64,000 bases of DNA, taken from contig QPGO01000119.1 in assembly GCA_008632985.1 (NCBI GenBank), forward strand, positions 186,001-250,000. Direction: 5' to 3'. The translations under genes were made by a program, and so were the position numbers. Under the pieces are notes generated by a model that searched no databases, was not told the origin of the DNA, and saw only the letters and a list, made by a program, of their open reading frames with translations. This DNA comes from Psammoneis japonica. Lineage: Eukaryota. Positions 200-63,042 of this stretch are shown here, piece after piece (the stretch's first letter is position 1; each line of letters begins with the position of its first letter).

Positions 200-3100
200 G
201 AGTAGCAAGACCGGACCGCAAGGGGCCCGCCTTCAGAAAATGTCATGAGAGATGCCACACATCGACATGGACAATCATCTCCCGGCTCCACCACCTCTGG
301 ACAGCACTTTACCAGCATTTTCAGGTCTTGGAGCATCTTGGCATCGTCAATGCATCGCCTGCAAGCAACATCCAGAGGGTGCAGACCTGCCCCATTTCTT
401 TTGTTGAGCGCGGCCGGTCCGGCCTTTGCAAATGCTTTGACAACTTCAGATGGCAGACACTTCCCAAGAGCACAGTGAATGGGAAAATCACGTCATTGAA
501 GGAAACGATGGTTTTGTGTGGGAGTCACAAGGTCCTGTTGAAAACGGCGGGTCAGCATTCGAAGAACATGGGGAGATGGACATGCAAGACCCTCATGGCA
601 TTCCAAGTGCACATGCAAAGGACTCTGACACCATGCTCCATTGGTCATGCAAGGCATCCTTTTGGCAAGAAAGAGAATGATGTCAGTGCTGCAGTCATGA
701 ACGATTGCTGTGTGCAACGGAAGGCATTGTTCAAATCGAACTGTCAGACTGGCCACTCGACGGAAATGCTTTGTTGCTTCAGGACAAATTCGAGCCAAAG
801 ACTGGACTCTCTCCAGAGAAGCTTCATCATCTTTGTTCAGCTCTTCATGGAGTGCATCAGACATTTGCTGCAGGTCTTCTGGACGACGGTTTTGCATCGA
901 CACTGCCATGGTGAAGGCTGTGATGAATGCAAAAAATTTGAGCATGTTTTGAATGCGGACAGACTGTGGAGCGACGATGAAAAAGCAGAGCAGAGACCTT
1001 TGAAAGCAACTGGTGATCAAGTCTCGTGCCGACAAGAGCAACAAGAAATGACAAGCTGGTGGAGAGCAATGCTTCACACAACAGAGTGTTTCTAGATGTT
1101 GCAAGAGAAGCAGAGCTGGTCTCTGCTGCACTTCAAACTGCGACAGCAAAAGCACCACCACAGCAAGCCCATCAGCACCAGCCAAAAGATGTTGTGTCGT
1201 CCATCAGAAGACAGAGTTTCAGCCACGAGTGATGCAGAGAAATCAGCCACACAAGATGGGAAGAGCAGATCTCCAGTCATGAGATTGCATTTGAAAAAGG
1301 CGTTGGGCATCTCCTGCCATGGAGAGAGACAGAGAAGAGAGACAGGTGGCTGCAGCTTCATTTTGTGTGCTCTCCCCCAGCTCTCTCAACTGCTGTCTGT
1401 CTCTGGCGCAAGGGAGAGAGAAGTGCTCAAATGCAGCACTTCTTTTTGACAGCAGCTCCATCAAAGAAATGAAGTGCAACAATTTGGCAATTTTGCACAA
1501 AAGAAAGTTCTCTGGGTTCCTGCAGCAAACAAAAGACCAGTGCAAATTGAGCCCCCTGAGTGCAGCCCAAATTCACACTCCTTTTTTTTTAGAGAATTCT
1601 CACAGAACATCAGCTCAACCCAGAGTGCAGTGCACACAATGCACAGTGTCATCATCAGCTGCACCAGTGACATGATGACAAAGGCACTCACTTGTGCTCA
1701 GCTGGGGCTGCAAAGAACCTTTGTGTTTTGAGCACTTTGCACCAGGAGGCTGTCAGTGTGCAACTCTCAGCAGACAAGCATGGTCCTGGAGGGGTTGGGC
1801 TGTGGTTGGTGGAAAAGTCATGGACAGCGATGCTCACCAGCTGAGACTGGAGTTGGTGGATGGACTTTTGAGTTCTTGCAGACAGCTGGTTGCACCTCAA
1901 TGTGCTTTGGGAATGATGCACACACCAAACAATGGGGCCCCTTTGTCATGTTGTGGGGTTGGTGGCAGGCTGCTGGCGCACATGTGCTGCAGCAGAGGCG
2001 CGCAGCTCTTGGCATGGCATCTGATGCAAACAACACAGAAGCTGCACAGCCGGCTGAGCTGTTGTTCAACCTTCAAACTGCCACAATTCACCACACCAGT
2101 GACAATGTTGCTGCCATGACTGCAAATCCTGAAGCTCCCTTGATTGTGGCACACATGAGCTTGGTCACTCACTTTTTGAATTGGCCGATGAACACCCATG
2201 TGGGTGTGGTCACGACTCGTCACCAAACTGCGCTTCTAGCAAATCTTGTGACAAATGGTCTGGACGTGTTCCAGCCCCAGGTGACACACAAAATGACAAT
2301 TAACTTTGAACACAAATCATGCATCTCTCATGCATGGAGCATTTGCACAAAAATGCTTAAAAGGAGGGGTTTTTTACAGGTGTCTAGAGCATGAACATTC
2401 AACTGGTTTTTTCATTGGCGCGCAAGTCCTCATGGGGTGTGGGATGTGTGTCACAAACTCCCTCAGCAGACTCAACGCTGATTGCACATCAGTGCATTGC
2501 ATGCAGAGATTTGTGTGCAGGTGGAACTCATGCCAGAGAGCATTGTTGAAAAATCATTTGTGATTGCATCAAAACAATGGCAATGATTTTGCCAAAAGTC
2601 ATCCGTTGTGTTGCAGCTCATTTGTTGCAACAAAAAACACAGGTTGCACCAAAACAATGATGTTGCAACACTCGCGCAAGTCTTGTTGGTGTTGCAAAAC
2701 ATTTGCATTTGTAAAAATCCATGCTTTTGGTGGTGAAAGCTTGATCGCAAGTCAGGGACCATGAAAAAATCATGCAAATGTCATTTTTGTGCACGACTTG
2801 GTTCAGGTGTGGCTGGAACATGTCTCTGACCTCTTGGGGAGAGAAAACAAGCTGAAAGGCTACGATCAAGAAAGGTGCATTCCTGGGTGCGACAACTTGA
2901 ATGACTTGAGTTGTCCAGTTGGGGCTGTCAACAATCAACTCAGTTGCTGCATGCATTTGGCATTGACAAAAACAGCTCCGAGCTGCTGCAAAATTTTTGA
3001 TCCTTTCCCAAATCATTTGCCCAACTGTTGCCAGACTTCTGATTGCCAGAGTTGTGGCAGCTCAAGTTGCCCAAGTGAAGAGCTCCTGGCTGCACCCGGC

Positions 3101-4340
3101 TGCACAACAAATGACAAACCCGATGCAAAGCACATCCACGTTTCCTCTCCAGCGCCAGTGACAATTGCCCCTCCAAGATGAAGAAACAATGACAATCCGG
3201 TGATGCGATGACATTCCAAGTGAAAAGCTCTCCCCTGGAGGATTTGGGAATGTCTCAGAAATCTCAGGTTGTTGGTGAATTTGGTGGTCCCAGGGCTGCT
3301 GCCCGGCAAGGGGTGGAGAGACAAGAAACAGAACAATTGAAGTGCTGCTGCCTCCTCCAAGTGGCAGCACAAAATCAAAAGAAGAAGAGCCCCCTCCAAT
3401 CGTTGCTGCAGAATCCAAAGTTTTTGAGTTGGTCTTGGACAGCGTCCAGTCTGCCAAGCACCTCAGTTGAGGCAAAAACCTCAATTGAGGCAGTTTTTTG
3501 CCCCCCCCCCCCCCTGCTAAATCGCTGAAACCTTCACAGCCCCCAAGTGACATTGGCGCATTGTTCTCCATGCTTTAAAACCTCTTGGGGCAATGACTCG
3601 GCTCTTTGTTCACCATCAACCACACTTTTCTTCTTCACCTTGTTGGCATGCAAATGCGCGCATGCCAAAAATGCACAAATTTTGGGACTTTGATGATGAT
3701 GCAACCACCATTTTACAAACTCTGGGACTCTCTCAACAACCCACCTTCAAACAAAATCGTGAAACACAGCAAGGACGACCTTGTCATGGTGGCCCAAGTC
3801 TCGAAATCAAAGCGACAGTCAAGAAAAGGAGGGTTCAAGCAAAAAACACAAAAAAATGGCACCTCAAAAATCCGGGTCTGCAACGATGGCAAATCTGGGC
3901 TGCATGCGCCGCAGGCTGTCTTCTCTGTGACAACGGAAGCTCGCTGTTGTGTGCTGAGCTTTCAGGGAGCATTTTTTGCGACCGCAGCATCAGAGTTGTT
4001 GATGTCACAACAAACAACTGAGACCACCAATCCTTGTGTTGACCCATGTCACCAAAACACAACAATTGACAATGACAAGCACATGATGCACCAATGTGCA
4101 TTAAATGTGAGACGATGTGGTGGTTGAAAGCACGTCAAAGGGCTTTTCATGAATGTGATGGGCCATTTTCGCATCCCACGTTTGTGGCTAATTTGTGGAT
4201 CTCAAGATTGAAATTTGACACAGACAAGCACATTGCGCATGTAAAGCAAGGTGTCATGAGCAATGAAGTGGCTTCATTGTCATTGCAGACTGCTTTGCAC
4301 ACCGCAATGGGATTGACATCGTGGTCTCTCGTGTTGTTTG
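200..4340. repeat. TpA-depleted, TpG/CpA-rich degenerate block (repeat/TE-derived, family not assignable)
   Basis: Very few TA dinucleotides; many survivors are in ctag/ttaa/ttag contexts. Many overlapping Cys/His-rich, Tyr-free ORFs. Confidence 0.65.
240..950 (-). pseudogene. Degraded ankyrin-repeat-like coding remnant inside a TpA-depleted block
   Basis: The minus-strand translation has LPLHTAIVHDCSTDIILFL, SPLHVHL and LHPLDVAC-like motifs resembling ankyrin repeats. The frame is broken and Tyr-free. Confidence 0.3.
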
Positions 4341-4419: not shown

Positions 4420-4509
4420 AAAAAACCCGGTAGACTCTCTAGACACTCTCTCTAGAGTCTAGCAGCTAGAGCTGAGTCTCAAAGGTGAGAAGTGTAACAG
4501 TCAATAGAT

Positions 4510-5845
4510 CGTGCAATCAAGTCGAAGGGGTCAAAAGATCACAAGATCTTCCGCTTTTTTTTTTTCGCGCGAAAGAAAAAAATCAGATCGCCATGACCTT
4601 GCGAATTCCCAGTTATGCTCTCTAGTAGTAGTGGCATGGGGTCAGAATTCCTCATGCATCATGATGCACAAGTAAGATTTCACTAGAAGAATGAACGCTA
4701 TCAAAGAAACTCCACCGTTTGTGGACCATGAAGATGATCCTCCGGAGCAGCAACTCGAGCCTCGAGCACACACAGCACAGAGCCACTTGACAACATGCTG
4801 AACGGAAACGTGGCGACAGAGTACTACAGGACAAACTATGTCGAGAATGAAGTATCATCATCTCCATGGGAGGAACAAGATAATGATGCGTTTTTAATGG
4901 CGTTGCGGGCTACATTCGACAATGGAAGCGAAAATGGTGGTTCGCCACAGCAGGCTCCTCGATCCGTTGTGAGAAGATCGATCGATTTTTCGGGTCTAAA
5001 ACAAGTTCCAGAAGAAGGATCTGAGGACGAGATTGAAACTGGTAAACAAGAGGAAGTAGCGATACATCAAGAAGGCTTTTCAGAGCGAGAAAAAACTGCG
5101 GAGAACAATAATGGAACTGATACTATGCCTACTACAGTCGTTGCATCTACTCGTTCATCTGATCTGACAATACAAAGAACTGGCACGATAGTTTTGACTG
5201 GATCAATCCTACCGCGGTTCGTTTTGGACTTCGGATATCTGCCATCTTGACGGCAAGTTTACTGTTTGTTCTTACGCAGCCACCCGATTCCCAATCGTAT
5301 CCACAAGGCGTTTGTGGGTATATTTCTGCCTGATGATGAGCTGGTTCCCAAACATGACTGCCGCTTCGGTGGGGGAAAGACCTTCCAACGTATTCTCTAG
5401 AGGGACATGCATTGGCGCATCTCTTGGTATTGGAGTGGGGTTTTTGTTCTCGGTGGCAGTGATATCCTTTTTATACTCGTTTGCAACCATTCAGTTCAAC
5501 TCTGCAAGTTGCTGTGCCTATTGATATTTGGTATTTCAGTGGTAATTCGAAATGGAAGAAAAGAGTCTTTAGAGCAATCAAGTTGTCGCAAAATTGGGGG
5601 CATAGGGAGGATTGTCCTTTGCCATTGTCCTGTGGCCAAAACATAACAAAAGAATGTTGCGCGACAAGATTGAAAAGGTACGTTTGGTTTCCTAGTTAGA
5701 AATTGCCATTGATGGCCTGTCGCTCACTCGAAAGCGGAGTTTATCTTCAATCTTTTCTCTGTGAAGCAAGTCAATTTGGCCGGCGATGTATCTCTACTCT
5801 CTAGCTAGTAGAGCTAGAGTTCCCATGCGGCTGACACACAGACTT
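4510..5845 (+). pseudogene. Truncated, frameshifted duplicate of the 5' part of the ALMT/FUSC gene at 10012
   Basis: High similarity to ~9840-11290 (e.g. ATEYY.TNYVENEV.SSPWEEQDNDAFLMALRATFDNGSE). It has frameshifts and internal deletions (including the intron-1 region) and ends near 5845. Confidence 0.85.
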
Positions 5846-7799: not shown

Positions 7800-9660
7800 A
7801 AGAATGGCAAAGAAAATGACAAGAGCCCTGCCGTGTGTTGTGTTGTGGGAAGAGTCAACGTCATGGTCGTGCTCTTATCATTGCGTGCAAATTCAGATGT
7901 CCGCCATCAGGGCGCCACACCGGCACCTGGCAAATGCCCTTTTAGACGGGATGAACCACGGTCGCAAGGTGGCCGCCTGAGCCAAGGCAACTTCATGGCT
8001 TAATTTCACTTGGCTGGTGCATCTGTTTGCCCACACAAATGGTGGTTAAAGTCACTTTTAATGGGGCAATCCTCTTGATCGGCCAAAAAAGCAGGGGAGG
8101 CACAAAGCTCAAAGCGGAGCACTCAACTCCCGCTGACACCAACCACAAACTTTGACAGCATTGAAAAACATCCTCTGTTCATTGAAAGTGCCACACCCTG
8201 TTGCATGGATCCACTTTTGGAAGCCTTTGTGGTGCTGTGAAAGCCGACTGGCACTGGAGTGCATCACAGCATGCCAGCATTGCTCGTTGCCTCCCGCGTC
8301 CCTCTCTGCTCTGCAGCCTGGCTGCTCAACGTGCGTGTTGTTTTTACAAGGGCTTCATGTTGCTCTCAAGTTGTGTCATTGCATTGGACATTGCTGTGAG
8401 CCTGTTGCCATGCTTTCCAAGTCCACCTCTTCTTCTTTTCTTTCAACAGTGCACTGAGCTCCACACACACTCTGGGAAAGTGCTCTGGCACAGGAGAGTG
8501 TGGATGTGCAAGCAGCAACAGCATGGTGCAGCCACCCAATGGCTTTTGTCAACCTTCATCAACATGGCAATTTCAGCAAATGTTGATCTCCCTTTTGAGT
8601 CTGTGCAGCAAGAATGTCAGCCATGTGTCAACATCCTTTGGCTTGTTTCAGCACTGTCTTGTTCTCCCCAGCTGCAGCTCCCACCTTGGCGGGGCTTGGG
8701 GTTGAGAGTTGATTGAAGGTGGTGCCATTTTGGCAAGAAAAGTGGGCAGCATTTTTAGAGCTGGAAGTGGCAGTTCCAACATTGTTGTGTGGTGCCAACA
8801 TTTTCACATTTGCTTCTTGTTGCAGCATGGCACTGCTTCAAGTCAAAAGAAGATGTGGACGTGTTCCAGCTCTAGGTGGGACCTCGTACAACTGAACTGT
8901 GACATCGATAGTTTTTTTGATCGCGTCGTATGTCGCGCACGTAGATTTCTACGTGATTTTTTCGATAGTTTGTGTCATTTTACGGTACACTTATTGAGCG
9001 ATCCGTCCAACAACTTTTGACATTTTTTCTTACAGCGCGATTCTATAATGTCTTAAGAATCGCGTAGGGCAGGCGCATTTGCAAAAACGTCGAGTGGTAA
9101 GAGGCATAATTGTACCACAAACTTGGCCGTTTATTTGATGTTGAAGATAAAAATATCCATTAATTAAATTCTCGTACTACGGAGCTCGCACGTAGAATTC
9201 TACGGGCCCAATGTCACACGGAGTCCCACCTAGGGATGGAACGCGTCTGTGCTGCATCAAAACATTTGCTGGCTCACCTCCAGTGTGCTGTGCCTGCATT
9301 CTTGCCAAAGTCAAAACATCACTTGCTGACTTCCCCAATGGTCACAAAAGGAAATTGTGAAAGTCAACAGAGCACAACCCAGCAGCACAGCACTTTTGCT
9401 GCTGTGATTGCATTTTTTCTGCAAGAACTCGCTGGTGTCTTCCCATTGTCCTTGTCCACTTGTCACTCTGCCTCATGGAAGGAGGCAGTGTTTTGCTTTG
9501 CTGTGCACAGTTGTTTCCAAAGCAAGGTGAGTCTTTTCACACTTGGAAGGTGATGCGCCAATGCAAAAATCAGCATCCACATTTCTTCTTGACAGAGAGC
9601 TTTTTTCTTTTGGGGTTGCATTTTGTGCAAGTGAGTGGTGGTTTTGCAGATCAAATCATC
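7800..9660. repeat. TpA-depleted degenerate block (hosts the MITE at 8872-9233)
   Basis: Near absence of TA at ~8100-8870 and ~9235-9660. Confidence 0.6.
8872..9233. mobile_element. MITE-like element (~360 bp) with terminal inverted repeats; TSD either TA or CTAG
   Basis: ctaggtgggac at 8872 and gtcccacctag ending at 9233; further inverted match tgtgacat/atgtcaca; repeated subterminal cgcacgtaga(t/a)ttctacg at ~8936 and ~9187. Normal TpA content, unlike both flanks. Confidence 0.75.
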
Positions 9661-10011
9661 TTGAGTCTCTCTATGTGGCTTTGTGCTGTAGCTAGAGGTG
9701 TTCTCTCGAGTCATCCTCTACTGTACACTCTCTCCTCTCTACTCTAGAGACAGCTCTCTACCGGTGCTGTGTGGTGTGGCTGGTGGGGTTCGGTGTGCCG
9801 ATCGATTCTTCCTTCGCGGTCGCGAGAGCGAGGGAGAGCTCGCGCGATCAAGTCGAGGGGGTCAAAAGATCTCCTGCTGCTTTTTTTTTTCGCAACAACA
9901 AATCAGAACACCATGACCTTGCGAATTACAGTAAGATCGAACGATACGCCGTCGGCATGAGTTCAGAATTCCTCATGCATCACGAGGCACAAGTAAGATT
10001 TCAATAGAAGA

Positions 10012-13330: not shown

Positions 13331-13971
13331 TTTTGTCCATTCCGACATGGCTTCCTTTTGCTTGAGGTTCGCAACAGACGTCCGTGCGTGTGCGTGCGCG
13401 CTCGATGCCATTCCCACCGGTGCGGGTGGGCCTGCGGCCTGCATCAGTGTATTTTGTCAGCTCAAGTCGCACTCTCACTCAAACATCAAACGTCATTCTT
13501 TTGAAACATCACCATGAACCGCATCCAAAATGTGCTCACCACTCACCACTGGAAGCTGCTGCAAGTGTTCTTCTGCCACAGAACCCATTGTGTCCTTGTT
13601 CTTGTTGCACATCATGTCAAGTCATCTGCCCATGTCTGCTCCTGGGGAATCATGTCGGAGAGCTCTCACGAACACAACATCTCAGCAAACAACTCCATTT
13701 TCAAAGCCACTGCTGAATCTTGAATGGCATGTGTGCATGCACCATGCATCTTCTTCATGCTCCTCACACATTCATTCTGTGTTGTTTGTTGCCAGCAGTG
13801 CTCTCCTGTGGTTGTGGCTTCACATTTTTGCACGGCGCCGCTTCTCTTCGCACTCACAAACACTTCCCAAAATGGCCAAAGGCTTGTTCCCTGTTTGTTG
13901 TTCCTGGTGCCATGGGTGAAAGCACTGGCCTGTTGCTGGTGCACCAGTTGCTCTTGATGAAGTGTTGTTGG

Positions 13972-14430
13972 GAGGAAGGAGCGATGTTTGGGTGTGCAGA
14001 CATTTGGCTTCCAGCAGCAATGTGCCAGCAGGAGGCACTGGCTGTGGCTGTGTGGCTGGCCCCAGTTTGTCAACAGCATTTCTTTGGTTCTGTGAGACTG
14101 TGGTGCTCATTTTTCTCTTTGCCAAGCCTGGTTGGATGAACAAAGCTGGCCCAGAACCCCACTCAAGACAGTCAAATTTCAACATTTCCCTTCTTCATTC
14201 GAGACACCACAGTGAGGAAGAGATGTTTGGGTGTGCAGACATTGTTTGGCTCCCAGCAGCAATGCCAACAGGAGGCACTGGCTACAGCTGTGTGGCTGGC
14301 CCCAGTTTGTCAATGGCATTTCTTTGGTTTTGTGAGACTGTGGTGCTCCTTTTCCTCTTTGCCAAGCCTGGTCAGATGAACAAAGCTGCTGGCCCTGAAC
14401 CCCACTCAAGACAGTCAAATTTTAACATTT
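13972..14430 (+). repeat. Tandem duplication of a ~240-bp unit (~13972-14187 and ~14214-14430)
   Basis: Shared gatgtttgggtgtgcagacatt...ccccactcaagacagtcaaatt. Differences include TA/CA/TG swaps. Confidence 0.9.
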
Positions 14431-26898: not shown

Positions 26899-26971
<73 letters not shown>

Positions 26972-50412: not shown

Positions 50413-50759
50413 CTCCAAAGTTCTTCAGTCAATCCGAAGTCGAATCTGTTTCTGTGGCTCCTCAAGCAAACTGGGGAGTGACAGGATTTGAGCAGGATTC
50501 AGGTGCGTGCGAAATGTCGCGCGCTGTTTAGTTTGCCGCGCACAGTTTTGTGTGCTTTGGTTCCGCGCGTTCGCGCGCGATGTAGTTTGCTTTCGAGCCA
50601 CAAGGCTCACAAGAATGACAACAGCAGCCCGATTGTGCCGACTTGCACGTCTTTCGGCTCCTGCAACGGTCTCTGAGCGGAGACTCATCTGCTGTTCAGA
50701 CAGCAGCAAGGAGCCATTGTTTGAATTCTTGCCATTTGCCTTCAATTTCTGTCACACGA

Positions 50760-53700
50760 AACCCCGCCGTGTTGCTGCTTGTCGGCACCCTCGGAATGCT
50801 GCAACATTTCTTCCTGATTGTTGGCAACTGAGTTTCTTCAACTTCTGTGCAATTTCAAGCAAACAAGCATTGTGGGATGTTCCTTCGAAGATCAATGATG
50901 CAACGAGCTAATTGTCAGTGCATGATGCACTTGCGATGGCTGCCGAAACACTTCCAGCACAATGGCGAAGGTTTCGGGTTGAGAAAAAAATGTGCAATCT
51001 TCCGTTGCGGTCTTGCCATGTCACAAGTCTGCAAAAGATCTTGGCACCATTTCTACGCTGGTGCTAAAAATTTTGCTCTACAGACACAAATGTTGTGGAT
51101 GAACCGTGGTGGTTTGTTGGTGTGTTTGCCACGTGCGCACTCTAGAAAGCAACGCATTTTGTGGCGCTGTTCAACATTGATTCATTTCAGTGCTTCGTGC
51201 TCTCGTGGATGGGAGAATGAACAAAAAATGCTTGCAAAAGCACAATGACAGAATGTGCTTCGACTCCGTTTGCGTTCGTCACTCGGCAGTTTCCAAGTGT
51301 GTGTGGCCACATGACAGCCTGTCAGAGACAGCAACACTGATGTTGCATGTGTTGTGTTTCTCAGGAATCAGGAAAGAAGTGAGTGTCAATGAATGAGACA
51401 TGCAAAACACACGTTGATTTTTGTTCTTTGTTGCCCGTGTTGGCGATGCAGGTGTCGAAGAGTCTCGATCTTGTTGTCCTTTGGTGTCAGTTTGTCTTCA
51501 TCGCACTTTGAATTCATGATTTCTGAACTGAATTTAAGCAACAACAGCACAGTCCAACAATGCCATTGTCATCACATCTTGCCTCACACATTGTTTGCTT
51601 CTGTTTTCATGCCCAAATGTTGTTCGAAAGTGTTGCTGCACTTGCGCGCACACTGCACTGAGATTCCCTCGGTCGGTGCAACAGATGTTTAGCCAACAGT
51701 GCCAGGTTGTCCAGAGTGATGATGCGGCAGCTTGGACAGCTGATTCGCTGTTGAGGTGACCTCATCGGCACGCAGACAAGCAATCAATCTTCTTGATGAG
51801 GATTTGCTTCTCTGAGTGTTTGGATCCGGACCAGCATGATGCAGTCGACATGGCATGCTGCCGCACTCTGCATGCTTTGTCAGAGCAGCTCTGGTTTCTT
51901 GCACACCATGGCAAGAGGCAAGAGAGAGCAGTGAGTCAGCCGTTTGTTGCCATGGTGGGTGCCAATCAACTTGCTTGCCCACTCATGTGCACCAATGGCT
52001 GCTGCTGCTGCCACCCAGATTGCACAGGCAGGCAGCACAAGAGAGCAGGTGCCATCCAACACCACCAATGACAAGCCCAGAAGTCCTTGCTGGCACAACA
52101 TCAACATCTTTTTGTTGAGCTTTTTTGTGCTTCTATTTGAAGGCTTGGTTCCTCCAAACACTGGTGTGCTGGCATCTCTTGCTTGCACACAGTGTGCTTT
52201 CACCTTTTTTCTCCAGCAGCCTGCAAACAACAAGTGATTGAGAAAAGTTAAAGAAACACAACTGCTGTGGTGTGACACACACATTGCTCAGCAAAGATGT
52301 GGGCAGGTTGAAGCACCAAACCAATGTTGCTGTGCTGCTGCTTTGAAGCATTCTTTGAACACCCAGCTGAGCATGCACAAAAGTGAAGCCAGCCCAGCTG
52401 TTCAGCAAAGAAGCAAGAAAAGTGACAGACAAAGTGCTTTTGCATGCCCCCCCCCGTGAAGAGCTCCTGTTGCTGTTGGAGCTTCACCACTTGCCAGCTG
52501 GTGTGCATTTGGTCTCACCATGATCTCTGAGCCTGCTGCGTGGCTTGCAAAAACACGTTGCCATTGTTGTCAATCACTGTTGCCATGTTGGCCAGGTGCA
52601 GAAGCTAAAAAGTGAACACAACAAGACCTGCAACTCAAACCAAGTTGCAAACACAAACTTGCCACATTGTCCAAAATTGTCGCCAGTGTGCATCACACTG
52701 TGACTTTGTCTGTCTGTCCTGCAAAAACTGACTCTGACCTTGATGCTCCAACACACTTCTTCACACAAGCCATGTCAACTGGTCAACCTCATGCCCATCA
52801 AGCATGGGTGGATGACACTTGGAAACCATGCAACCCAACAACATGTTGGCTGTTCTGCCAATTCCAATGGCCCACATCATCCAACTCTGCTGACAGTGAA
52901 CGATCATTGTCAGGGCAACCCTCCTTCTCACATGCCCAACAAACTTGTTGCATTGCCAGCACTCAATCTGCTTCATCTCACTCCATGCAAAACTTGTGCC
53001 ACCCGGTTTCTTGTTGGTCCTGCAGCAGGTGTGTCCAACACCCATGGTGCCTTTTCAGCTGGATTGGGGTGAGTGTCAACCCCCAATGTGAGCCGCTGAT
53101 GCAGGTCTTTCAAGACTTGCCAGTGTGTTCCTTGGCACCTTCCACTGGCATCGCCACCAATGGCTTGTTCCTTTTTTTGTTCCAGGCGTCATTGACATCC
53201 TTGCTGGGTCCATCTTCTTTTTTGGTGATTTCTTCCGTCCGGGATGATCCTGCCACAGGACGTGTGTTTCCACTCCTGTTTCAACTGAGCTTGCAAACCA
53301 ATTGTGCCAACAATCTTAAAAAAAGTGCTTCCACCTCATCTTGATGAATGAGCGCCAGCTGCTTCCAAGCCTTGACTGCCTTTTCGTTTGCATCTGACAA
53401 GATCGACTTGCCACATTGCCCGCCACAATCGTCGCTCAGTGTGTCTTTGTCTGTGTCTGTCCTGTGAAAACTGCCTCTAACCCCAATGTTCCAACAGGTG
53501 CATGCTGGACCAAGTGGGTCGAGAAGCACACGGCGGATGAAAAAATGAAATGCTGGTCATGTTGCAAGAACAAATCATGTGGGTGACCCTCAAATTGTTC
53601 CACGAAAATGAGTCACGGAGATGATCATAGACAAATTCAGTCGAATGAATCAACCCACGACCAATGTTGATTCGGGCAATGCGTGAGGTCATTCAATGCT
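50760..53700. repeat. TpA-depleted degenerate block
   Basis: TA is rare throughout; CG is also rare at ~51900-53100. Confidence 0.6.
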
Positions 53701-53834
53701 TGCCTCGTGAGCCCTCCTTCATCTTTTCCTTGTCACACGGCACCCGCACATGATCGTAAAATTGTGCCCAGTGACAAGACACTGTTCACAGACATTCTAA
53801 CATCTTAGAATGTCCTGCTGCAAACGATTTTTAA

Positions 53835-55070
53835 TTGAGCCCCGGGTGGTGTGGTTTTCACCACGACGTCCATCCCATTTTTTCTCGTCATGTTTGGTTT
53901 GAGAACAAGTCCAAAAGATCCAAAATGAGGACCATGCGTTGCTTTGTCTCTTGGACGCCAGTGTTGAGTGCCCCATTTGCAAGGGGTGAGTTCTTGTGTG
54001 GCACATCAAAGGCGCCTGGAGAGACAAACGGACATGGAGGTCTTGAACGCGACGAGGTCAACGCACCAAATGGTGCGACATGCACAATTTACGGAGGGAT
54101 CAAGGGATCGTCTCCAGCCACGATTTATGACAAAGTCCAAGTGAGTGGGGGAGCGACACTCATCATCACTGGACAAGTCACCTTTGAAGGAGAGATCACT
54201 TTAAAACGTAGGAGCAGTTTGGTTGTTTCATCTGAAGAAAATGTTTGTCCAATGTTCAAGACGGGCATCAAGGCAAAAAGAACGAGCCAGGTTTCCATTT
54301 CAGCAGAGGGATGCTGCGTTCATGTGGGCAGAAACCTTGAAGTCTGCGAAAGTTCCGGATCCAGTTCCAGTGTCGAGATCCAAGGAGTCCCAGCAGACAC
54401 TGTCACAGTTGACAAGAATTCTGTTCACACTCTCAAGACAGTCAACAACATGTTGAAGAGAGGAAAGTCATTGATCGCATCAAAGAACACTGTGACGGGC
54501 TCCAAGAAAGCTTTCATCAGCATGAACTCCAACACCAAGAGGATTGCCATCAAAGGAAACAAGTTCCACGCCATTGACATTGTTGGCAACGTCGCAACTG
54601 ACTCAATCGTGTTCAGTGGGAATGCGCACAACTCAACGTTAGTTTTTCAAGACAATGATTCAGGCAAGAAAATGAAACTCAAGAACAACGATGGCGCAAA
54701 AGGAAGATCTCTTGACTGTCAAGGGAACGTCGTTGGTGGGAAGTTCATGGTGAAGAGACGGTGCAAAGCTCCAAACCCTCAGAAGCAAGTCGCAGCTTCT
54801 AATTCTTCCCCATCAAGAAGCCCGCTGACGAAGGAATTAGAAACCGAAGGCACAGACCAGAACGGTGAGACAGGCGGTGGTGCCACGGCACGTGCTCTCA
54901 CCCAGAATCCCACGCCTTCGCCAACACCACCGCCAACGACACCCTCAACTCAGGAGCCGACGCCCGAGCCAACCACAAGAGAAACGGCTGAACCAACTCC
55001 ATTCCCGATGCGAGCTGCGACAAACAAGTCGGAGGGAGGTCTTGAGGCACAGACCACCACAAAAAAGTCA
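53835..55070 (+). pseudogene. 5' part of a host gene (beta-helix-like Asn/Gly-rich repeats and PT-rich linker; probably extracellular) interrupted by the LINE
   Basis: The ORF runs ...NPTPSPTPPPTTPSTQEPTPEPT...TTTKKS up to the TSD and continues in frame at 63135. True start uncertain. Confidence 0.7.
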
Positions 55071-55184
55071 AAACAAAACCAAAATTCCATGTTTGCAGTG
55101 CTGCCACGCTTCCACCCTGCAACTCCGGCAACAAGCCAACCCACACCCCCAGCGCACTAAAAGTGCGGCAGGAGCAAACAGTGG

Positions 55185-58100
55185 TTAGCCGAGATCGGCG
55201 TCACCCGAGGGTGACGCCAAGCCAAAATAACTTGCGATGGTTCTGGTGCCTCGTGCAGCCAAACATTTGGCTTCACGCATGCTTGATTTAAAGACTGGTT
55301 TGAACATGGCCAACCAGTTTCGAATCCGGTGAGTGGAGTGTGACAGGTGTTCTTCTGCCGAATCAAGGAGGAGCGCCTTGTCTCTTGCAAGACAATTGTC
55401 TGTACGAGAACAAATGGCCTTGACCTCTGCTTCTGCGTCTCGTCTTTGAGACGACTTCCTCGTTTCCGAATCGTGTCCGTGCACAGCGTCGTTGTGAGCG
55501 TCCCAGAGGTCCCACCACTGCTCCCCACATGAAATTCCCAATGGTTGCAGCCCAATCCAGCCATTTCTGTTGATCTGAGAGAGTCCGACAAATGCCGCTC
55601 GACGAAAGGTGAGAGGTTTGCGTCGCATTCCACTGGACAGAAAAACGGCCATTAAACAACTGACGCCAACCTGTTTCCCCTTGGGAATGAAATGCGGGCA
55701 CGACGCTGTGATGAAATTGTTCTGAGTGCAAAAGCTCGCCTCGAAACCATGCTTCAACAGCCGAAATTATCAAGTCTCGTAAGGAAGGAGACATGTGAAC
55801 ATCATCGCACTTCTTGCGCAATCCTTGCAAAAATTTTCTGTGCCAGGCTTCATTGTGAGGGCAACGGAGAATGTGATCTCTGTCTTCCATGGGGTCCTGA
55901 CAGTGAACAACAACAGTCCGGACGTGTCGGATTGCATCTGTGCACAATCTTGTTGGTGGGCAGAAGATCTTGAACCAGCTTGACGGCACTGACTTTTCGA
56001 CGAATGTTTCGTGACATCAATTTCGAATGAACGTCCCAATCAATCGATGCGCACACTTCGTCGGACCAACTGTGTTTCTCTTTCATGTGCTGAACCAGTG
56101 CAGGACTCGATGCCTGACATCTGACAACCGGCTTGCATTTGGAAGAAACAGTGGCTCCTTGAAGAAGCAGGTTTGCTCGGCAATGAGGCATGCGGGGAGC
56201 AGCAAGAGCATTGCCCGTAAATCGACCTTGGAATTGTCCAGCGAGTCTGTCGGCACGTGTGTTCAACTTCGCCGCTTGAGAGAGAGAGTCAATGGGAAGG
56301 ATGTCATCTTGGTGTCCCTTCACCCAGTGAATCTCGACTGTGGGACACGACAGTTCATCAGTGCGTGCTTCTGACAGCTGTCTCAGGGAATGGAAGACCT
56401 CATTGACAACACCCCAATCCGGAGAGAGAGCATCAGCAATGTGAAAACGCCAGTGGAAGTCTCCTTGGATCTCCTCCTCGTCGGCAGGATGAGGAATCAC
56501 CTGGAAATTCGAGACAGTGCGAATGAGAGCGGAATTGTCGCAATGCAAATCAGCGCCGCTGACCTGTGTAGAACAACAGTCTGACAATCGGATCAGAAAA
56601 CGGAGAAAAGACAGTGGACCGCATGCCTCCGCACGACAAGACGATGGGCGAAAACCGAAAACTGGACCGGCACAATCCACAAGAGGAACCCCGTCGATCG
56701 CAATCGTCCACCCGAACGTGCCTTTGAAATGGAGGACCGAACCGTCGCCAGCTGCTGAAACCTTGTGGGTGACGAGGAGCTCAGCGATTTCAAATGTAGA
56801 CCGATGTAAATGCAATTCTTCGAACAGAGCAGATTCCCACCGAGGAAGAGACCGCAGCATGGCCAAGAAATCATTCGGGACGGGAGGGACTGTCGGCAAG
56901 GACACTGGAGAACCGAATGACTTGATCCGCCACAAACCGGTTGTAGTCGTAACTGCTGGCACAGGGGAAGCGGCTGGGGAAAGATCTGGAACGTTTTCCA
57001 GAGCAGCAAGAGTCTCCGCACAACCTTGGTGCACTGGGAAAATCTCGAAACCCGAATCTCCACGAATGCACAAGTGATCCTCGGAGGATTCGTAATGTGC
57101 GACATGTGTCATGCGCATTTCCGTAGCTGGTGCAACCCATTGACCTAAAGGGTGTCGCAGATCGAGCGAGTCTGGTTTGCAAAACAAGGAACAGGCTCGA
57201 CGCCACTGTTTCCATGCCCGAGCGGATGGACGTTGTTGTTCGATGGGATTCAGAGTGCTGCGACTGCTGAGAAGGAACGATCGGCCGTTCACTTTAAAGG
57301 GATCGAGCGAAAAACCATCTGGAGAGGCAACATCCGACAGAGTCAAAACATTTGGATAAAGACGACAGTGGTTGACCCACTGCATCTCACGATCACTGAA
57401 CACCTGGGATTGAAGTGCAATGTCCATGATGCATTGGTCGTTGTCTCGCTGGAGTGGAAGCACTCCAGCACAATCACAGTCGATGGTGGCATCGATCCGG
57501 GCCAAGAATGAATGCAAGGACATGAACCATTTCGATTCGGAATGAGGGAGCTTGGCATGGACGTCCTGAAGAAAACTCACACCTGTGCCAAGCTGCAACT
57601 GAATCCACAATGCAGCGATTTGCGACAACACCTGAGGTTGCCCAGAGCCCCGCCAGTGGGTGAGAAACTGCAGAACCTGCGCTGCACCCTGTTCCACGTC
57701 TAAAGACCTGAAACCACCGCCTCCCAGGGAATGAGGTCCGAAGAGGACGTCACGTTTCGAGTTCCGATTGCACCCGCATTTGGCAAAAATGGCACGCATG
57801 GCCTTCCTCTGCACTTCGAGCAACTCTTTCTCCTTGAAGTGAGTGTTCGGGAGAACATGCGTGGTTGCAGACAGATGACAAGCAAAATGGTGAGTCCATG
57901 ACTCGTGTCGATCTAAAGGACAAGACCGAAGGAAAAGGGCAATGCCGTCACTCTTTTGTTTCAGAGCCGAGTGCTGGGTCTTTTGAGTCCCCGCTGGAGC
58001 TTTGCAGTGTCCAAGTGTCTTGTGAGAAGAGCATGCGGACAATTGTTTGCTTGACCCGGTCGTGGTGCGGTCTGCAGAAGAGATTTCAATGTCAATGTCC

Positions 58101-61076
58101 TCGTTGTGGGGTCAAAGGTGAGGTTCGCCGTCCTCTGTAAACATCCATTCGACAGCGTGGAAGGAGCATTTGGGTAATTCTAACTCGTGGCCAGCCGCGT
58201 TCAAAAGGTCGCACCACAGTTGATTGTCTTCCTGCATCTTGAAAGCCAAATCGAGGATGCAAGGTTGAGGACTCGAACAAAAATCGTTCACCTGCTTGGA
58301 CGTGTCGTCGACATGTCCTCCATTGAACATCTGCAGCGAGAGGGAGTGATCTGGGGACTCGAAAAATGCACCATGTGCCCGTTGATCGAAGATCTGGAAC
58401 AGACCATTGCAAATTTGGTTCCAGCAAAACGGAGAGTTTCCGCTGCCCTGTCCTGTTCCGTAAATGGGGAAGTCATCAGAGTGAGAACAAGAAGTTAGTG
58501 ACAGGCCCAGCACCATTCGCAACCAGCAGCGAGCCTTGTGAACAGTGGCGTCAGCGACTTGAGTGACTTCTTTGGGCATGCCATTGCTGCGGCTCTCAAT
58601 TGCAACCAGAGCGGGAATGTTCCGATCGCAGCACGATGTGCAGTCATCATCGCTGTGAACAGCGGATTTTCGGGAGGCACGGCCAATCTCGAGCATGAGT
58701 TCTTCAAGGCACACAGGAGTGTTGGCATTTAAGAAGGCACGAGTGCCGCAGATCCCCGAGTTGCACAATCGGCGGTGTTCCATGTTTTGGGCCAGAGTGC
58801 GCCACTTGACGCTCAAGATTAATTGAAAGTCAGCTTTTGCAGATGTGGGTGACACGGAGACGATGCATCTTGTTGTTGCCTGGCTCTTTAAAGATCATCA
58901 CGTTGACAACATCTTGCCAGCGGTGAAAGGAGTGTCCCCAACGAAGGGCACAGTTAAGCAGATTCAACCTGATTTGAGCAAGGGATTGTTGAACTTCATC
59001 GAGGGCCTCACATTCAGGGGCAGGATTGCCTTCGGAATCAGCTGCATCTGAGAACCGATGAGGAGCATGCATTGCTTTCCAATGACCTGGGTGGAGGCCG
59101 GAGCAAATGGACGTGGAGGTGGATTCTTTCCAACGTTATATTTTTCCTTCGAGATCTGATGCAGACAGAAGATTTGGTGCAGAGACTGGGGAACGGCGAC
59201 GCAAGTGGTTGATGAAAAGGGCAGTTGCTTCGTTCAAAGCCAACGTGTCACACTCGCCATCAAGAATGAGATCCGCCACAACAGTGTCACCTTCGTGGCC
59301 TGGGTCCATGGATGACGGAGGCACCGTTGGAGGGGTGCCTTGTGCCTGACTGAAGTGTTTTTGATTGCGTTGACGGAGAGCAGTGGCTGCCTCTTCCGGA
59401 GCGTCAACAGTGGTCCAATCTTGACATTCTTTGGGAGGAACAGAAGGATTGCCGGGAACTTGGACGCTCTGAATGCCTGTGTCCCTCTGAGTGCGGCATG
59501 AGTCAATCTTCCTGAACAGCTTTTTCATCTCTTCTGCCTTGCGGACATTGCGCAAGACAGTTGCCTGTTTGCGTGACTCCTTGGTGCCTTCCAGATCGAG
59601 TGCGGCCATCCTCTCGGAAACTTCCCTTTCGCGGTGTACGACACTGTCAGCCGCTGATCGCTTGCAATCGTCTTGAGCAGCACACAGCACCTCTTGACAA
59701 CCTTGCAAAGTGTCGGGGACAGTGAAGGATCCACTCAGTTTGTCTCGCATTGCTCGAATCTGTGATGCGCAGTCCAATTTTGTCCTCATCATGGATGCGA
59801 GGCGGGAAAAGATGTGCACCCGGTACCTCAGGTCTGAAAGTTCAACCGACCAGTCGGGTTCGCAATGAATTCGGCATTTCTTGGCAGCGGAAAGAGAGAA
59901 CTGCAGGAGATCACGGTCCAACCGTTCAGCCAGAGCATGATCTGGAGCGTCAAGTTCCAGCAGCTGGAAAGAGCGTTGCAATGCCGAACGACTCTGAATC
60001 ATTGGGCCGATTGCCTGTAGACAAGAGGTGAGCTGTGGTTTAGACGTAGCCTGAATGTCCCTGAAGGATGCCTTGGGTAAATCGACAGTCGGGTTGCCGA
60101 AAAGAGCTGCGGTGTCAAAGTCCACGAAGTGAGCACGATGATCAGAAGTGACTCGACATCCAAAGGCTTCACATCCACCGAAGCGAGCTGCAGCAAGAGC
60201 GCCAGGAGAGGCCAGTGCGCAGTCAAGACGCCGGGAACCTCTGGCACATGTGGAGAACTCAGTGTCGCCCATGATGTTAAACAGGACGTCAGACAAATTG
60301 AAGCGCTGGGCAACGGCAGCCAAAGAGTCAGTGTCACAGGTGAAATCAGTGTTAAAGTCCCCAAAAACAATGACTTCTCAATTGGAATCCGCCAGAAAAT
60401 CCTGCAAGACTCGGGACAAGTCTGCACAAAATGCCTTCCTGGGATCGAGTGACGGCGCCCCAATTGNCCGGAGGAGGGCCAATTGTTGAGCACATGCTGT
60501 TGTCTTCCCTGGGTGTTGTTGGTTCTTAGCGCAAACTCGACAGCAAGAGACAAACACAACTTGGCGTCCATTCCCACCGTCGAAGACTTGAATTGACCAC
60601 CTGCCGAGCGGGTCGGATTCTTGAGTCCGGAAGCAAGCAGAAATCGAATTACATGACAACAAGGCCATTCCACCCGGTTTGCATTGCATTGCAAAGGTGG
60701 TGGAACTGCTTGAAAAGGCAGACCGCCCATGATGTAAAGACTTGGAAACGGCAGATCTGCACATGGATGAAATGTCGAATTGGGTGGTGTCGAGGCACAC
60801 CTCCGAGATGCCAATGACATCGGCTTGAATTTCGGAGGCGAGTTGACAGCACTTGTTCACATCACCGCCACGCTTGTCGAATTTACAACCGTTGGCATTG
60901 AAGGCGTAAAGGCGCGCATGGTGAGAAAGCTTGGGCCGGAGTTCGTCGCCCACAGGTGCGTTGGTCTTCAGTCGAGAAAAATCTATCCGACGATCTGTGG
61001 GAGGGTGGCAACTGCGTCCGTCTAGGACATTCTGCCAAGCGAGAGCTGGATCTTCAGCAGAAGGCGAATGACTCAT
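55185..61076 (-). pseudogene. LINE ORF2 (AP endonuclease, reverse transcriptase, RNase H, C-terminal Cys/His motif), disrupted
   Basis: EN: FNANG, DVIGISE, KPGG, DPLGRW, SDHR. RT: FKEPGN..HRLRV.H, GTGQGSGNSP, HVDD. RNase H: GDGSV, RAEA.G, CDN, WVKGHQD, N..ADRLA. Also EDRDHILRC. Confidence 0.9.
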
Positions 61077-61125
61077 TGTTGGGCCATGCTCCTCCGAAGA
61101 GAAGACTGAGGCTTAGAGCACTGCA

Positions 61126-63042
61126 TTAACTTGGTGTTGGCTTGGAAGGAAAAACTCCGGCATCGTGAAGTCCGACGGAAAATTGATGTTGGCGCAAGTG
61201 GTGAGTGGGGCGAGGAAGCAACATCAGGAGGTCGCCTGATTTCTTGAGGGGGTGGAGGCGGTGAAGTCCAACCCCTGCCTGAAAATCCGTCTCCCGTTCT
61301 TTGTGGTCGCCAGGGCGTTCAGGAGTTTCCATGTTGTTGGGGCGTTTTCTGGCTGAACTCTGAACAGGTTGGTTTGCTTGAAGCAGTTGAACAATTTGGT
61401 TCATTTGTTCCTGCACTGCAGCCAACTGTTGGGAATGCTGAAACTGCATGGTGGCCATGTCCTGGGAGTGTTGTTTGGTGAAGGTGTTGTGCAAAGCTTC
61501 CACATCCTGAGAATGCTGTCGGCGGAGATCTGCCAGAGCCGCATCGTTCTTCTGTTGCATTTGTGACAGGGTCTGTTGCACTTCCGCCATCTGTGCTGAC
61601 GTGAGGGAAGAACTTGTAGACGACTGAGTCGCTTGAGCGCACAAATGCGGAGGGGACGAGATTCCTGGGTGTCCAGAACATCCGCAAGGAGTTGCCTGGA
61701 AGGAGGGCCTGGGGGCGAAGATTTGCGGAGTGACTGACGGGCTTGGAGAGTGGCCTCGACCAGGGGTGCTGCCACGACCATGGCCTCTGCCCGCGAACTG
61801 TGCCGGAGGAGGAGGACGGTTTGACCTCGAGGCCTGGGTGTCCGTCAATGGAGATACGTCTGAGAAGGTTGGGGACTCCAAACTGCGGATGCTCGCAGAC
61901 ACTGTGGATTTGCTGGTGTCGGACTGCTCGTCAAGCACACCAGACACGTGAGGTTGATCGGGAAACGGAGGAGACGGCCAAGATTCTTTGGGGACATTTG
62001 GAATTTGATCCATGATGCATGTGGAGATGCCAGCACGGGAAGCTTTGAAATCCGTACGTTTGACCAACACATTGTACCGACCAGGGGTGGCACTAGACTT
62101 GCAGATCTCTTTCACTCCGGAGATGGCCCTGATGTGGTTTTCCAAATAAAACATCACATCCGGGGAGGTGCACAACAGCGGAACCACGCAAGCATCATGA
62201 TTGCGACGAGCTTGGAGTTTGACAGCGTTATAGAAGGCGAGTGGCGACATGCACCGTGTCTTTGCCACAACAATGTGTGTCGGCAGCTTGTTGGAGGCGT
62301 GCAGCAAGGTTTTTCCTGCAGTGCGGCAATCGTCTTGTTGCACTTCGATGGCACAAGTGACGGTGCGAAGGGGAGGAGCCAATTGATCGTCATCGGCACG
62401 AATGGAGGTAGGTGCGAGACGAAATTTCGGCATCTTGGACTTGAATTCGCCCAGATCTTTTGCAAACAACTTGGTAGCTTCGTCGATCGGAGTGTGCTTG
62501 GATGGGGCAGCGACGCAACATGCCGGAGTCGCCGTGTCGATCACTGGCTCATTCCAGCAGTGGCGCTTCAAACCCATGTTGTTTGAGTCTAAAATGCTCT
62601 GAATATGAGGATGAGAACAGATCTCTCGAAGGGGGACTTTGGTCAAAATACGGTGGCACAGGCGGTGGACGACAGGGCGTTTTTCTCCACTGCGAGTCGC
62701 AGAAATCGTGAAGTGACGTTCGTGCTGAAGGGTTGCAATCCATTCTGCAATGTTGACATTGGTGATCTGGTTGTTGTGGTTGTCCAGGATCTGAACATCG
62801 TTGTGATACGTGAATAGGATTTGTTGCAAAACTTGAAGATGAGCGGTGGTGAGGGTCATCGGCTTGCACGTCGCCTCCGGGCCACGAACATCAAAGCGTG
62901 GGGTGATCTCCACATAGGGAGGCTCTTTCGGTTTAGAAGAAGGTTTGTTGGATGCGTGATCAACAGTGATATCGTCCGCCATATTGATATCGTTGTTATC
63001 GTTGGGGGTATGGCTACCGTCAGCGACGGAACGAGACGCCAT
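61126..63042 (-). CDS. LINE ORF1 (Pro/Ser-rich region and Gln-rich coiled coil)
   Basis: 638-aa ORF directly upstream of the endonuclease frame, starting ~77 bp inside the 5' TSD. Confidence 0.8.
   Translation of the reverse strand: MASRSVADGSHTPNDNNDINMADDITVDHASNKPSSKPKEPPYVEITPRFDVRGPEATCKPMTLTTAHLQVLQQILFTYHNDVQILDNHNNQITNVNIAEWIATLQHERHFTISATRSGEKRPVVHRLCHRILTKVPLREICSHPHIQSILDSNNMGLKRHCWNEPVIDTATPACCVAAPSKHTPIDEATKLFAKDLGEFKSKMPKFRLAPTSIRADDDQLAPPLRTVTCAIEVQQDDCRTAGKTLLHASNKLPTHIVVAKTRCMSPLAFYNAVKLQARRNHDACVVPLLCTSPDVMFYLENHIRAISGVKEICKSSATPGRYNVLVKRTDFKASRAGISTCIMDQIPNVPKESWPSPPFPDQPHVSGVLDEQSDTSKSTVSASIRSLESPTFSDVSPLTDTQASRSNRPPPPAQFAGRGHGRGSTPGRGHSPSPSVTPQIFAPRPSFQATPCGCSGHPGISSPPHLCAQATQSSTSSSLTSAQMAEVQQTLSQMQQKNDAALADLRRQHSQDVEALHNTFTKQHSQDMATMQFQHSQQLAAVQEQMNQIVQLLQANQPVQSSARKRPNNMETPERPGDHKERETDFQAGVGLHRLHPLKKSGDLLMLLPRPTHHLRQHQFSVGLHDAGVFPSKPTPS

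Follow-up and report, generated by a model that had tools for sequence, protein, structure and literature searches.

A probable post-insertion hypermutation of TpA dinucleotides in transposons of the diatom Psammoneis japonica

We analyzed a 64,000-nucleotide stretch of the diatom Psammoneis japonica (assembly GCA_008632985.1, contig QPGO01000119.1, positions 186,001 to 250,000 of the forward strand; hereafter, the window), in which blocks almost devoid of the dinucleotide TpA alternate with genes of ordinary composition. The explanation that fits these blocks best, and which we hold with modest confidence, is that transposable elements (TEs) are hypermutated after insertion and on the DNA itself, the A:T pairs of TpA becoming G:C, with enzymatic deamination of adenine as the favoured chemistry. 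An earlier note on this DNA had proposed a mutator that turns TpA into TpG or CpA, and our results support such a mutator acting on transposon DNA. None of three contrary outcomes fixed beforehand was found: the ancestral state is TA and not CpG or CA/TG, the A-to-G excess is specific to TpA, and the pattern is present beyond the assembly, in contigs independently assembled from public runs of one sample.

Loss of TpA, its direction and its timing

Using sliding windows and the list of TA positions, we refined the edges of five blocks to 311-4101, 13451-18256, 21424-24546, 26788-31845 and 41739-43712, and their poverty in TA and richness in TG and CA, described in the earlier note, were borne out. 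These five blocks (18,752 bp), defined here as the old class, hold 50 TA where 724 would be expected at the density of the gene regions, with observed/expected (o/e) ratios of 0.04 for TpA, 0.21 for CpG and 1.82 for TpG and CpA each. The stretch 46578-62408 (15,831 bp) holds 121 TA against 611 expected, a TpA o/e of 0.13, and is a separate, younger class, because its CpG o/e is still 0.69. The intervening genes are TA-normal, as had been claimed: the gene regions (25,427 bp) show a TpA o/e of 0.55, a CpG o/e of 0.95 and TpG/CpA values of around 1.2, with 38.6 TA per kb. TA-free runs of at least 150 bp number 76 in the window; the longest (27733-29267, 1,536 bp) has a probability of around 2e-26 at the TA density of the gene regions. 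The G+C content of the old blocks is unremarkable (0.477 vs 0.470), since the gain of G:C at TpA and its loss at CpG roughly cancel. The indices used for fungal repeat-induced point mutation (RIP) are inverted in these blocks, with a TpA/ApT of 0.05 and a (CpA+TpG)/(ApC+GpT) of 1.92. Regarding CpG, the o/e of 0.21 and the replacement of Arg by His, Gln or Cys in 6 of 16 conserved columns of a gypsy element are the features of 5-methylcytosine (5mC) decay. CpG decay is thus a second, slower process alongside, and it does not account for the loss of TpA.

To polarise the changes, we relied on the proteins encoded by two of the affected elements. For the long interspersed nuclear element (LINE) at the end of the window, 153 homologs were aligned by tblastn, and columns were kept when at least 10 homologs were present with at least 70% agreement, which gave 344 columns. 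The window keeps Tyr in only 2 of the 14 conserved Tyr columns, with Cys in 9 and His in 3 (Fisher P 8e-9). The replacement codons are TGT (6), TGC (3), CAT (2) and CAC (1), each a single TA>TG or TA>CA step. Ile is kept in 3 of 8 columns and is otherwise replaced by Thr, Val, Met or Asn, while residues other than Tyr and Ile are kept in 69-100% of their columns (Trp 24/24, Lys 12/12, Gly 45/47). Against three closer homologs, the 11 columns in which all have Tyr hold Tyr 1, His 7, Cys 1, Phe 1 and Met 1 in the window. The pol gene of the Ty3/gypsy element, compared over 230 conserved columns, gives the same picture: a single Tyr of 11 survives, the others being replaced by Cys (4), His (3), Ala, Phe or Trp (1 each; P 8e-6), and 4 Ile of 14 survive, with Val (3), Met (3) and Thr (2) among the replacements. 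Lys is kept in 9 of 10 columns and Trp in 7 of 7. Arg is kept in 9 of 16 columns (His 3, Gln 2, Cys 1, Leu 1), and these losses are the CpG decay expected in an old block. The Tyr content of the window LINE open reading frames (ORFs) is 0.2-0.9%, versus a median of 3.7% in 153 proteins (150 listed reverse transcriptase (RT) homologs plus P0001-P0003).

The DNA of relatives and of repeated copies agrees with the protein columns. All of the best 80 of 214 confirmed related LINE loci, taken from metagenomes, are TA-normal, with TpA o/e values of 0.39-0.85 (median 0.68) and 0.35 in the lowest 1-kb window. The earlier note had stated that TA alternates with CA or TG wherever two copies can be compared, and we saw this in three places: a 42-bp tandem array, a pair of long terminal repeats (LTRs), and the pair formed by 20921-21084, outside a block, and 22675-22830, inside it. 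In that pair, the copy outside the block carries 6 TA and 5 CG, and its counterpart inside carries no TA and a single CG. Opposite the six TA, the inside copy reads TG three times and CA twice, and opposite three of the CG it reads CA. In the 42-bp array, two unit positions vary among TA, CA and TG, and most other positions are constant. TA therefore stands, in the comparisons at hand, as the ancestral state of the LINE, gypsy and LTR sequences, lost later, because of the Tyr>Cys/His columns, the LTR pair and the TA-normal state of the 80 relatives.

The LTR pair also gives timing and rate. The LTRs of one element with a target-site duplication were taken as identical at integration. The two copies differ by 18 substitutions, all of them transitions, and in a purine/pyrimidine alphabet they are 100% identical. 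Where one copy has CA and its partner TG, each must have undergone one step, from either TA or CG. There are six such sites, besides two TA/CA sites, two at CpG and two elsewhere, so that 14 of the 18 changes fall at inferred TpA sites; one TA and 20 CpG are common to both copies. We then modelled the sites hit in both copies as 12, namely the 6 discordant ones seen plus around 6 concordant ones assumed. With a TA ancestor, the numbers of sites hit in both, one or none of the copies (12/2/1) fit those expected under independent hits (11.3/3.5/0.3); with a CpG ancestor they do not (12/2/20 vs 5.0/16.1/13.0). As an estimate and not a measured rate, around 87% of TpA was lost per LTR, and other sites differ by around 1% (2 of about 200 positions), which would put the rate at TpA a few hundred-fold above background. 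In the same LTRs 2 of 46 CpG were lost, and by this estimate TpA loss is far faster than CpG decay in identical DNA. Because the LTRs of a single insertion diverged at TpA sites with opposite outcomes, the change occurred in place, on DNA, after insertion.

CA/TG discordance is likewise found in the repeat pairs within depleted DNA (18, 7 and 7 sites); elsewhere it is 0 in a gene duplicate and 1 in a repeat in normal DNA. The latter is a 180-bp repeat (34739-34916 / 39892-40078), TA-normal and near genes, with 5 CA/TA, 1 TA/TG and 1 CA/TG sites, and it may be a mild or partial form of the hypermutation.

Specificity, spared sequences and affected elements

Among the conserved columns that mismatch in the LINE (n=56) and in gypsy (n=61), TpA-type steps explain 17.5 and 19.5, respectively, CpG-type steps 7 and 11, other A:T>G:C changes 4 and 3, other G:C>A:T changes 4.5 and 3.5, transversions 13 and 16, and several-step changes 10 and 8. 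The A:T>G:C excess is specific to TpA, because Lys is kept in both elements and other A:T>G:C changes are few; the o/e of AA/TT is unchanged in the depleted classes, TpA being the only A:T>G:C context affected. Mutagenesis of the polymerase eta type was considered as a candidate and rejected: this polymerase targets the WA motif, and AA sites are untouched. Both strands are affected about equally, as had been proposed, since TG and CA counts on the + strand are similar (2107 and 2145 in the old class, 1466 and 1399 in the young one) and Cys and His outcomes are both present within one LINE gene. By the genetic code, TA>TG and TA>CA create no stop codon (TAA gives TGA or CAA, TAG gives TGG or CAG), and young elements therefore keep frames of 400-860 codons without a match to a domain model.

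Most block edges are sharp, within 100 bp or less; for example, there is no TA up to 18256 and then one every 5-20 bp. Surviving TA lie mainly in TTAA, CTAA/TTAG, CTAG and GTAA, and those in ATAN/NTAT are almost gone: the genes contain 159 ATAC and 72 ATAT, the old class neither, and the young class 3 and 1, respectively. Among the polarised Tyr events, TG and CA outcomes stand at 8:2 when the next base is T and at 0:2 when the previous base is A.

Two kinds of repeated sequence were spared. The gene segment 4506-5447 (+) is duplicated at 9837-10744 with 90% identity, and the 90 mismatches in 903 aligned positions show nothing unusual in their spectrum (43 transitions, 47 transversions; TA/TA 21, TA/TG 3, TA/CA 6, CA/TG 0). 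This linked 0.9-kb duplicate being unaffected, duplication alone is not the trigger, and the 'repeat-targeted' part of the earlier proposal is not supported. As a whole, the duplication spans 4506-5792 / 9837-11250, with around 86-90% identity over about 0.9 kb and less beyond, and the second copy (9837-11250) gave ALMT/FUSC_2-like matches. The other spared sequence is the 5' end of the LINE (62650-63075, 0.45 kb), which has 13 TA, near the gene-region density. The earlier note had set the end of the affected DNA at 62600, and depletion does end there roughly, with no sharp edge: TpA is depleted up to around 62400, but the depletion fades from about 62055, is about half over 62055-62650 and is gone by 62650. 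The sparing of this 5' end would be easier to understand if the target were chosen by chromatin state than if it were chosen by homology.

Regarding the affected DNA itself, a complete LTR element lies on the + strand at 46578-50754, with 276-bp LTRs (46578-46853 and 50479-50754), TG..CA ends, a 5-bp target-site duplication (CACGA) and a polypurine tract before the 3' LTR. Inside it is the 42-bp tandem array (48655-49976, around 30 units), which falls in an 861-codon open frame (47827-50409) without known domain. A full-length LINE occupies 55188-63075 on the - strand: its ORF2 is in 7 frame pieces over 55188-61112 (apurinic-type endonuclease, RT and RNase H-like end), with Exo_endo_phos in 60381-61112 and profile positions 25-1910 covered, and ORF1 lies at 61129-63057. 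The LINE RT has 1,491 homologs at E<=0.001, and a single N stands at 60467 in the endonuclease frame. Between both elements, 50755-55187 contains TpA-depleted, CpG-retaining repeats (TpA o/e 0.05-0.14), including an ORF at 53835-55157, and k-mer depth exceeds the single-copy level over most of this stretch. It gave no Pfam family, and the protein atlas gave no lead for the ORF (best score 0.75). Several contigs of public run X1 join 52611-52677 straight to 53454, omitting around 780-840 bases, so 52612-53453 is either an insert in the window copy or a deletion in other copies; short similar ends lie near the junction (52696-52753 and 53437-53496).

Among the old blocks, 41739-43752 (- strand) belongs to a Ty3/gypsy element, of which it holds the 3' part from the end of RT through RNase H and integrase; it is depleted in TpA and CpG, with a Pfam RT_RNaseH_2 match at 1.3e-21; 120 pol homologs aligned to 41861-43752, with a profile match at E 8e-90. 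Block 13451-18256 (11 TA, 42 CG) contains the direct repeats 14978-15490 / 17402-17921, which were missed by ordinary blastn and became visible after purine/pyrimidine recoding. Their 454 aligned positions show 132 transitions, 29 transversions and 18 CA-vs-TG sites, and the repeats possibly represent LTRs of a small element of old age; the block also includes 11 consecutive N (17056-17066). Block 21424-24546 has 3 TA and 40 CG and contains 22675-23135, a copy of the TA-normal 20921-21451; at 21100-21222, TA occurs every 3-8 bases, directly abutting the TA-free block that starts near 21424. Block 26788-31845 (14 TA, 41 CG) holds the longest TA-free run; no Pfam family was found in it, and its ORF 26804-27541 had no relative in the viral_contigs scan. 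Block 311-4101 has 12 TA and 77 CG in 3.8 kb and gave no Pfam family at E<=0.001, with only sub-threshold chance matches at E<=0.5; ORF 43-1092 had no relative in the viral_contigs scan either. These two scans speak neither for nor against a viral source of the old blocks. Finally, the stretch reported in the earlier note as depleted at 7800-9660 is so only in part: it has TA-free runs at 8060-8344, 8346-8755 and 9232-9671, and 1-kb windows over 8060-9671 give o/e values of 0.23-0.43 for TpA and 0.39-0.75 for CpG.

The Pfam search covered 162 stop-to-stop frames of the blocks and was repeated at E<=0.5 on 54 of them; it returned only RNase H (gypsy) and Exo_endo_phos (LINE), remaining matches being below the cut-offs. 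When all window frames were searched with profiles made from homologs of gypsy (40) and of the LINE (23), nothing beyond these two elements emerged. Identifiable transposons among the blocks are thus the LINE, the gypsy remnant and the LTR element only. For these, the claim that transposon or silenced DNA is the target held.

The window is nuclear diatom DNA: one ORF carries DUF6824, and the best named relatives of the ETF-beta ORF, at 67-72% identity, come almost only from pennate diatoms (Seminavis, Nitzschia, Amphora and Pseudo-nitzschia), so that a close relative among sequenced species is not apparent.

We used three public runs, X1 to X3, for copy number and support; the window share of sampled words was 0.88 in X1, 0.54 in X2 and 0.00 in X3. 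X2 left most of the repeats uncovered, and no conclusion here rests on that. On 50000-63999, 3,931 X1 contigs matched with a likeness of at least 80%, and for 745 of them it was at least 99%. The summed X1 depth was 250-950 over the LINE versus around 60 in the single-copy flank, and k-mer depth reached around 252,900 at 50467-50933 (3' LTR). From these depths, the identified elements are multi-copy, and the LTR family, or part of it, is present in thousands of copies. X1 contigs also matched depleted DNA at a depth of around 60, with 5 other letters in a 1,219-base piece and 2 in a 1,011-base piece. Such contigs exclude an artefact of assembly or polishing, but not a misreading specific to the chemistry. 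Among the 40 listed of the 1,563 places at which X1 copies differ from the window, adjacent double changes stand at 51697/8, 51728/9, 55800/1, 57369/70 and 58405/6, so the CA/TG discordance is also found among copies located elsewhere in the genome. Besides, two public records, P0084 (on a 970-bp contig) and P0113 (on a 14-kb contig), encode RTs of other LINE families. Their Tyr content is 0.8% and 0.4%, respectively, and tyrosines conserved among RTs are replaced in them by His or Cys, so at least two further deposited contigs bear the same signature; metagenome contigs were also searched for P0113, without a match.

Candidate explanations

A process of this kind was reported in 2026 in the chlorarachniophyte Bigelowiella natans. 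In mutation-accumulation lines, 231 of 302 new nuclear point mutations fell in two integrated viral regions (Mettrop et al., 10.64898/2026.01.13.699255). Of these 231, 230 were A>G or T>C, all GC-biased ones were on TpA, and the rate was around 6e-7 per site per generation, a thousand-fold above that of the remaining genome; 11 of the 15 lines showed such events. The authors, who suggest an ADAT2-type adenine deaminase, describe the larger region as present in one copy and transcriptionally silent, and report an excess of reverse transcriptase and DDE endonuclease domains among coding sequences poor in TpA (10.64898/2026.01.13.699255). Its text as available to us does not contain the words 'diatom' or 'stramenopile'. 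The earlier note knew of no description in diatoms, and we found none for TpA loss in diatom transposons in the open-access PMC/bioRxiv literature, which would not cover a description published in a subscription journal.

In the explanation we favour, the A:T pairs of TpA would, after insertion of a TE, be changed almost exclusively into G:C, giving TpG or CpA depending on the strand affected. The process runs nearly to completion, by our estimate around two orders of magnitude faster than background substitution, and ends within around 100 bp of the edge of the element; it ruins the element proteins (Tyr>Cys/His, Ile>Met/Thr/Val) though open frames stay long. It would be the kind of process seen in B. 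natans. In chemical terms, a deaminase would convert the adenine of 5'-TA to hypoxanthine; what brings the enzyme to its targets would be their silenced or foreign chromatin and not repetition as such, and invading DNA would thereby be disabled. Several points weigh against this explanation. The LINE 5' end is as repeated as the rest (depth 377 vs around 60) and yet TA-normal, which is unexplained. Four of the five old blocks have no recognisable transposon or viral origin by Pfam and profiles or, for two ORFs, viral_contigs. The small numbers of polarised Tyr events only weakly support A with T on its 3' side as the preferred target, and trinucleotide gains and losses are ambiguous as to the flank, the composition of the ancestral elements being unavailable. 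Nor do the totals of transitions between X1 copies and the window (A>G 276, T>C 226, G>A 358 and C>T 239) polarise the changes. Finally, X1 to X3 come from one sample, possibly the assembly's own source, and are not biologically independent.

One could argue that no dedicated mutator exists and that TpA is lost as a side effect of epigenetic marking, in which a modified base at the palindromic TpA of silenced DNA, either 5-hydroxymethyluracil or 5-formyluracil (5hmU/5fU) made by a TET/JBP-type enzyme or a modified adenine, mispairs more often than usual, much as 5mC causes CpG to decay. We regard this as possible but short of probable. TpA-free domains are also the domains that lose CpG, with common sharp edges; TpA is palindromic, as expected for a mark that can be maintained; and the LINE 5' end is spared, as a promoter free of silencing marks might be. 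The repeats and transposons of dinoflagellates are rich in 5hmU, which helps to silence them (PMC11572971), and that paper cites earlier work on Crypthecodinium in which 5hmU replaces T preferentially in TA and TC. However, the rate at TpA is far above that of CpG decay in one and the same element (around 87% per LTR vs 2 of 46 CpG), TpC is hardly affected (o/e 0.96 vs 1.13), and the changes are pure transitions, the LTR pair being without transversions. Base excision of oxidised thymine would be expected to add transversions.

Editing before insertion, whether of RNA (ADAR-like A-to-I editing of double-stranded RNA) or of complementary DNA (cDNA) during reverse transcription, with the product then copied into the genome, would agree with the facts that all identifiable targets are retroelements and that depletion stops at element edges; ADARs, moreover, favour U 5' of the edited A, as noted in the B. 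natans preprint (10.64898/2026.01.13.699255). We consider it improbable, as 8 TpA-derived sites distinguish the two LTRs of a single insertion, 6 of them with opposite outcomes, the units of the tandem array differ among themselves, and the strands are equal in the LINE, though a LINE is copied only from sense RNA. In B. natans, the targets are integrated DNA viruses and the events arise de novo in the genome (10.64898/2026.01.13.699255). An artefact of sequencing or base calling, in which modified bases of silenced DNA are misread as TG or CA, seems less probable still. The platform behind the assembly and X1 to X3 is not on record, and the three runs share a sample; against this, independent X1 contigs match depleted stretches at single-copy depth, thousands of diverged copies differ at depleted sites, P0084 and P0113 encode LINE RTs with Tyr>His/Cys too, and the B. 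natans events were called from Illumina reads (10.64898/2026.01.13.699255). To the idea that the element families natively avoid TA, by composition or selection, we give almost no credence: nothing favours it beyond the composition itself, while relatives are TA-normal at 80 of 80 loci with Tyr at a median of 3.7% across the 153 proteins, tyrosines of catalytic domains are destroyed, and the LTRs diverged after insertion.

Going beyond the favoured explanation, we tentatively suggest a dedicated adenine-converting enzyme that acts at 5'-TA in double-stranded DNA and reads silenced or foreign chromatin rather than sequence repetition, either shared by the diatom and the chlorarachniophyte or arisen twice, the two being distant members of the Stramenopiles-Alveolata-Rhizaria (SAR) group. 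Stramenopile-restricted deaminases fused to Tudor domains are listed as candidate editors by Iyer et al. (PMC3239186). If such an enzyme exists, a dedicated TpA system would be the main route of TE killing in P. japonica, leaving a stop-free stock of long altered frames, and comparing the proteomes of the two hosts with those of signature-free diatoms would name a natural adenine editor of double-stranded DNA.

Meaning and comparison with known systems

To our knowledge, before 2026 no process other than RIP was known in which a cell rewrites its transposons through saturating point mutation. In that year an A:T>G:C counterpart directed at TpA was described for a single alga, where viral inserts are the main target. 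Judged by its sequence, the diatom window would be the long-term trace of the B. natans kind of process in a second, distant lineage. This trace is much stronger (TpA o/e 0.04) and lies on LINE and LTR retrotransposons, so the process would not be a one-species curiosity, and the diatom would offer a second genome for finding the enzyme by comparison. Any mechanism must explain post-insertion action, strand symmetry, sharp edges common with CpG decay, the fastest loss at ATA/TAT, and the sparing of gene duplicates and of the LINE 5' end. In practice, depleted elements evade ordinary repeat finders and domain searches, as happened with most blocks of the window, and can be recovered in a purine/pyrimidine alphabet, and LTR-based dating in such genomes would be badly inflated unless TpA sites are masked.

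Fungal RIP resembles what we describe in being a saturating, in-place transition hypermutation of transposons, on both strands, with sharp limits, at one dinucleotide and with permanent inactivation. RIP requires RID/DIM-2 and a premeiotic stage. It changes CpA into TpA and raises TpA/ApT (threshold of 0.89 or more, as quoted in PMC7884421), whereas the diatom blocks have gone from TA to TG/CA. RIP makes stop codons, which the diatom process cannot; it is triggered by duplication, while the linked diatom gene duplicate is untouched, without CA/TG sites; and it lowers G+C, which is hardly altered in the diatom. Decay of 5mC shares with the diatom process dinucleotide-specific, strand-symmetric transitions ending in TpG/CpA within silenced DNA, but it cannot remove TpA and is slower here (in the young class, CpG 0.69 vs TpA 0.13). 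ADAR and APOBEC enzymes also hypermutate parasitic nucleic acid through deaminases, but they act before integration on RNA or single-stranded cDNA and with strand bias, unlike the strand-symmetric, apparently post-insertion changes seen here. Moreover, ADARs are restricted to animals (PMC3239186). The dinoflagellate 5hmU system is, like the proposed one, a non-cytosine base system on repeats in a related SAR lineage; it is a mark, a mutational trace is not among the features reported in the accessible part of its description (PMC11572971), and TpC is undepleted in the diatom.

The closest system is that of B. natans (10.64898/2026.01.13.699255). There, the events were directly seen, while in the diatom they are deduced from sequence; the main target is a single-copy, silent giant-virus insert with only mild depletion (Rho TpA 0.45), versus 0.04-0.13 in the diatom LINE and LTR retrotransposons; and the host belongs to Rhizaria and not to the stramenopiles. 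All identified diatom targets are multi-copy, and a duplicated gene is spared. Co-occurrence with CpG decay, timing evidence from LTRs and a flanking-base preference, all three of them features of the diatom, do not appear in the main text on B. natans as available. Confinement, for its part, is seen in the diatom in the LINE, the gypsy remnant and the LTR element, with genes keeping a TpA o/e of 0.55 and four old blocks unassigned. In both organisms, the changes are almost exclusively A:T>G:C at TpA only, giving TpG or CpA according to the strand; they are confined to foreign or selfish DNA, host genes being spared, at a rate orders of magnitude above background (estimated for the diatom); and the long-term trace is a low TpA together with a high CpA and TpG.

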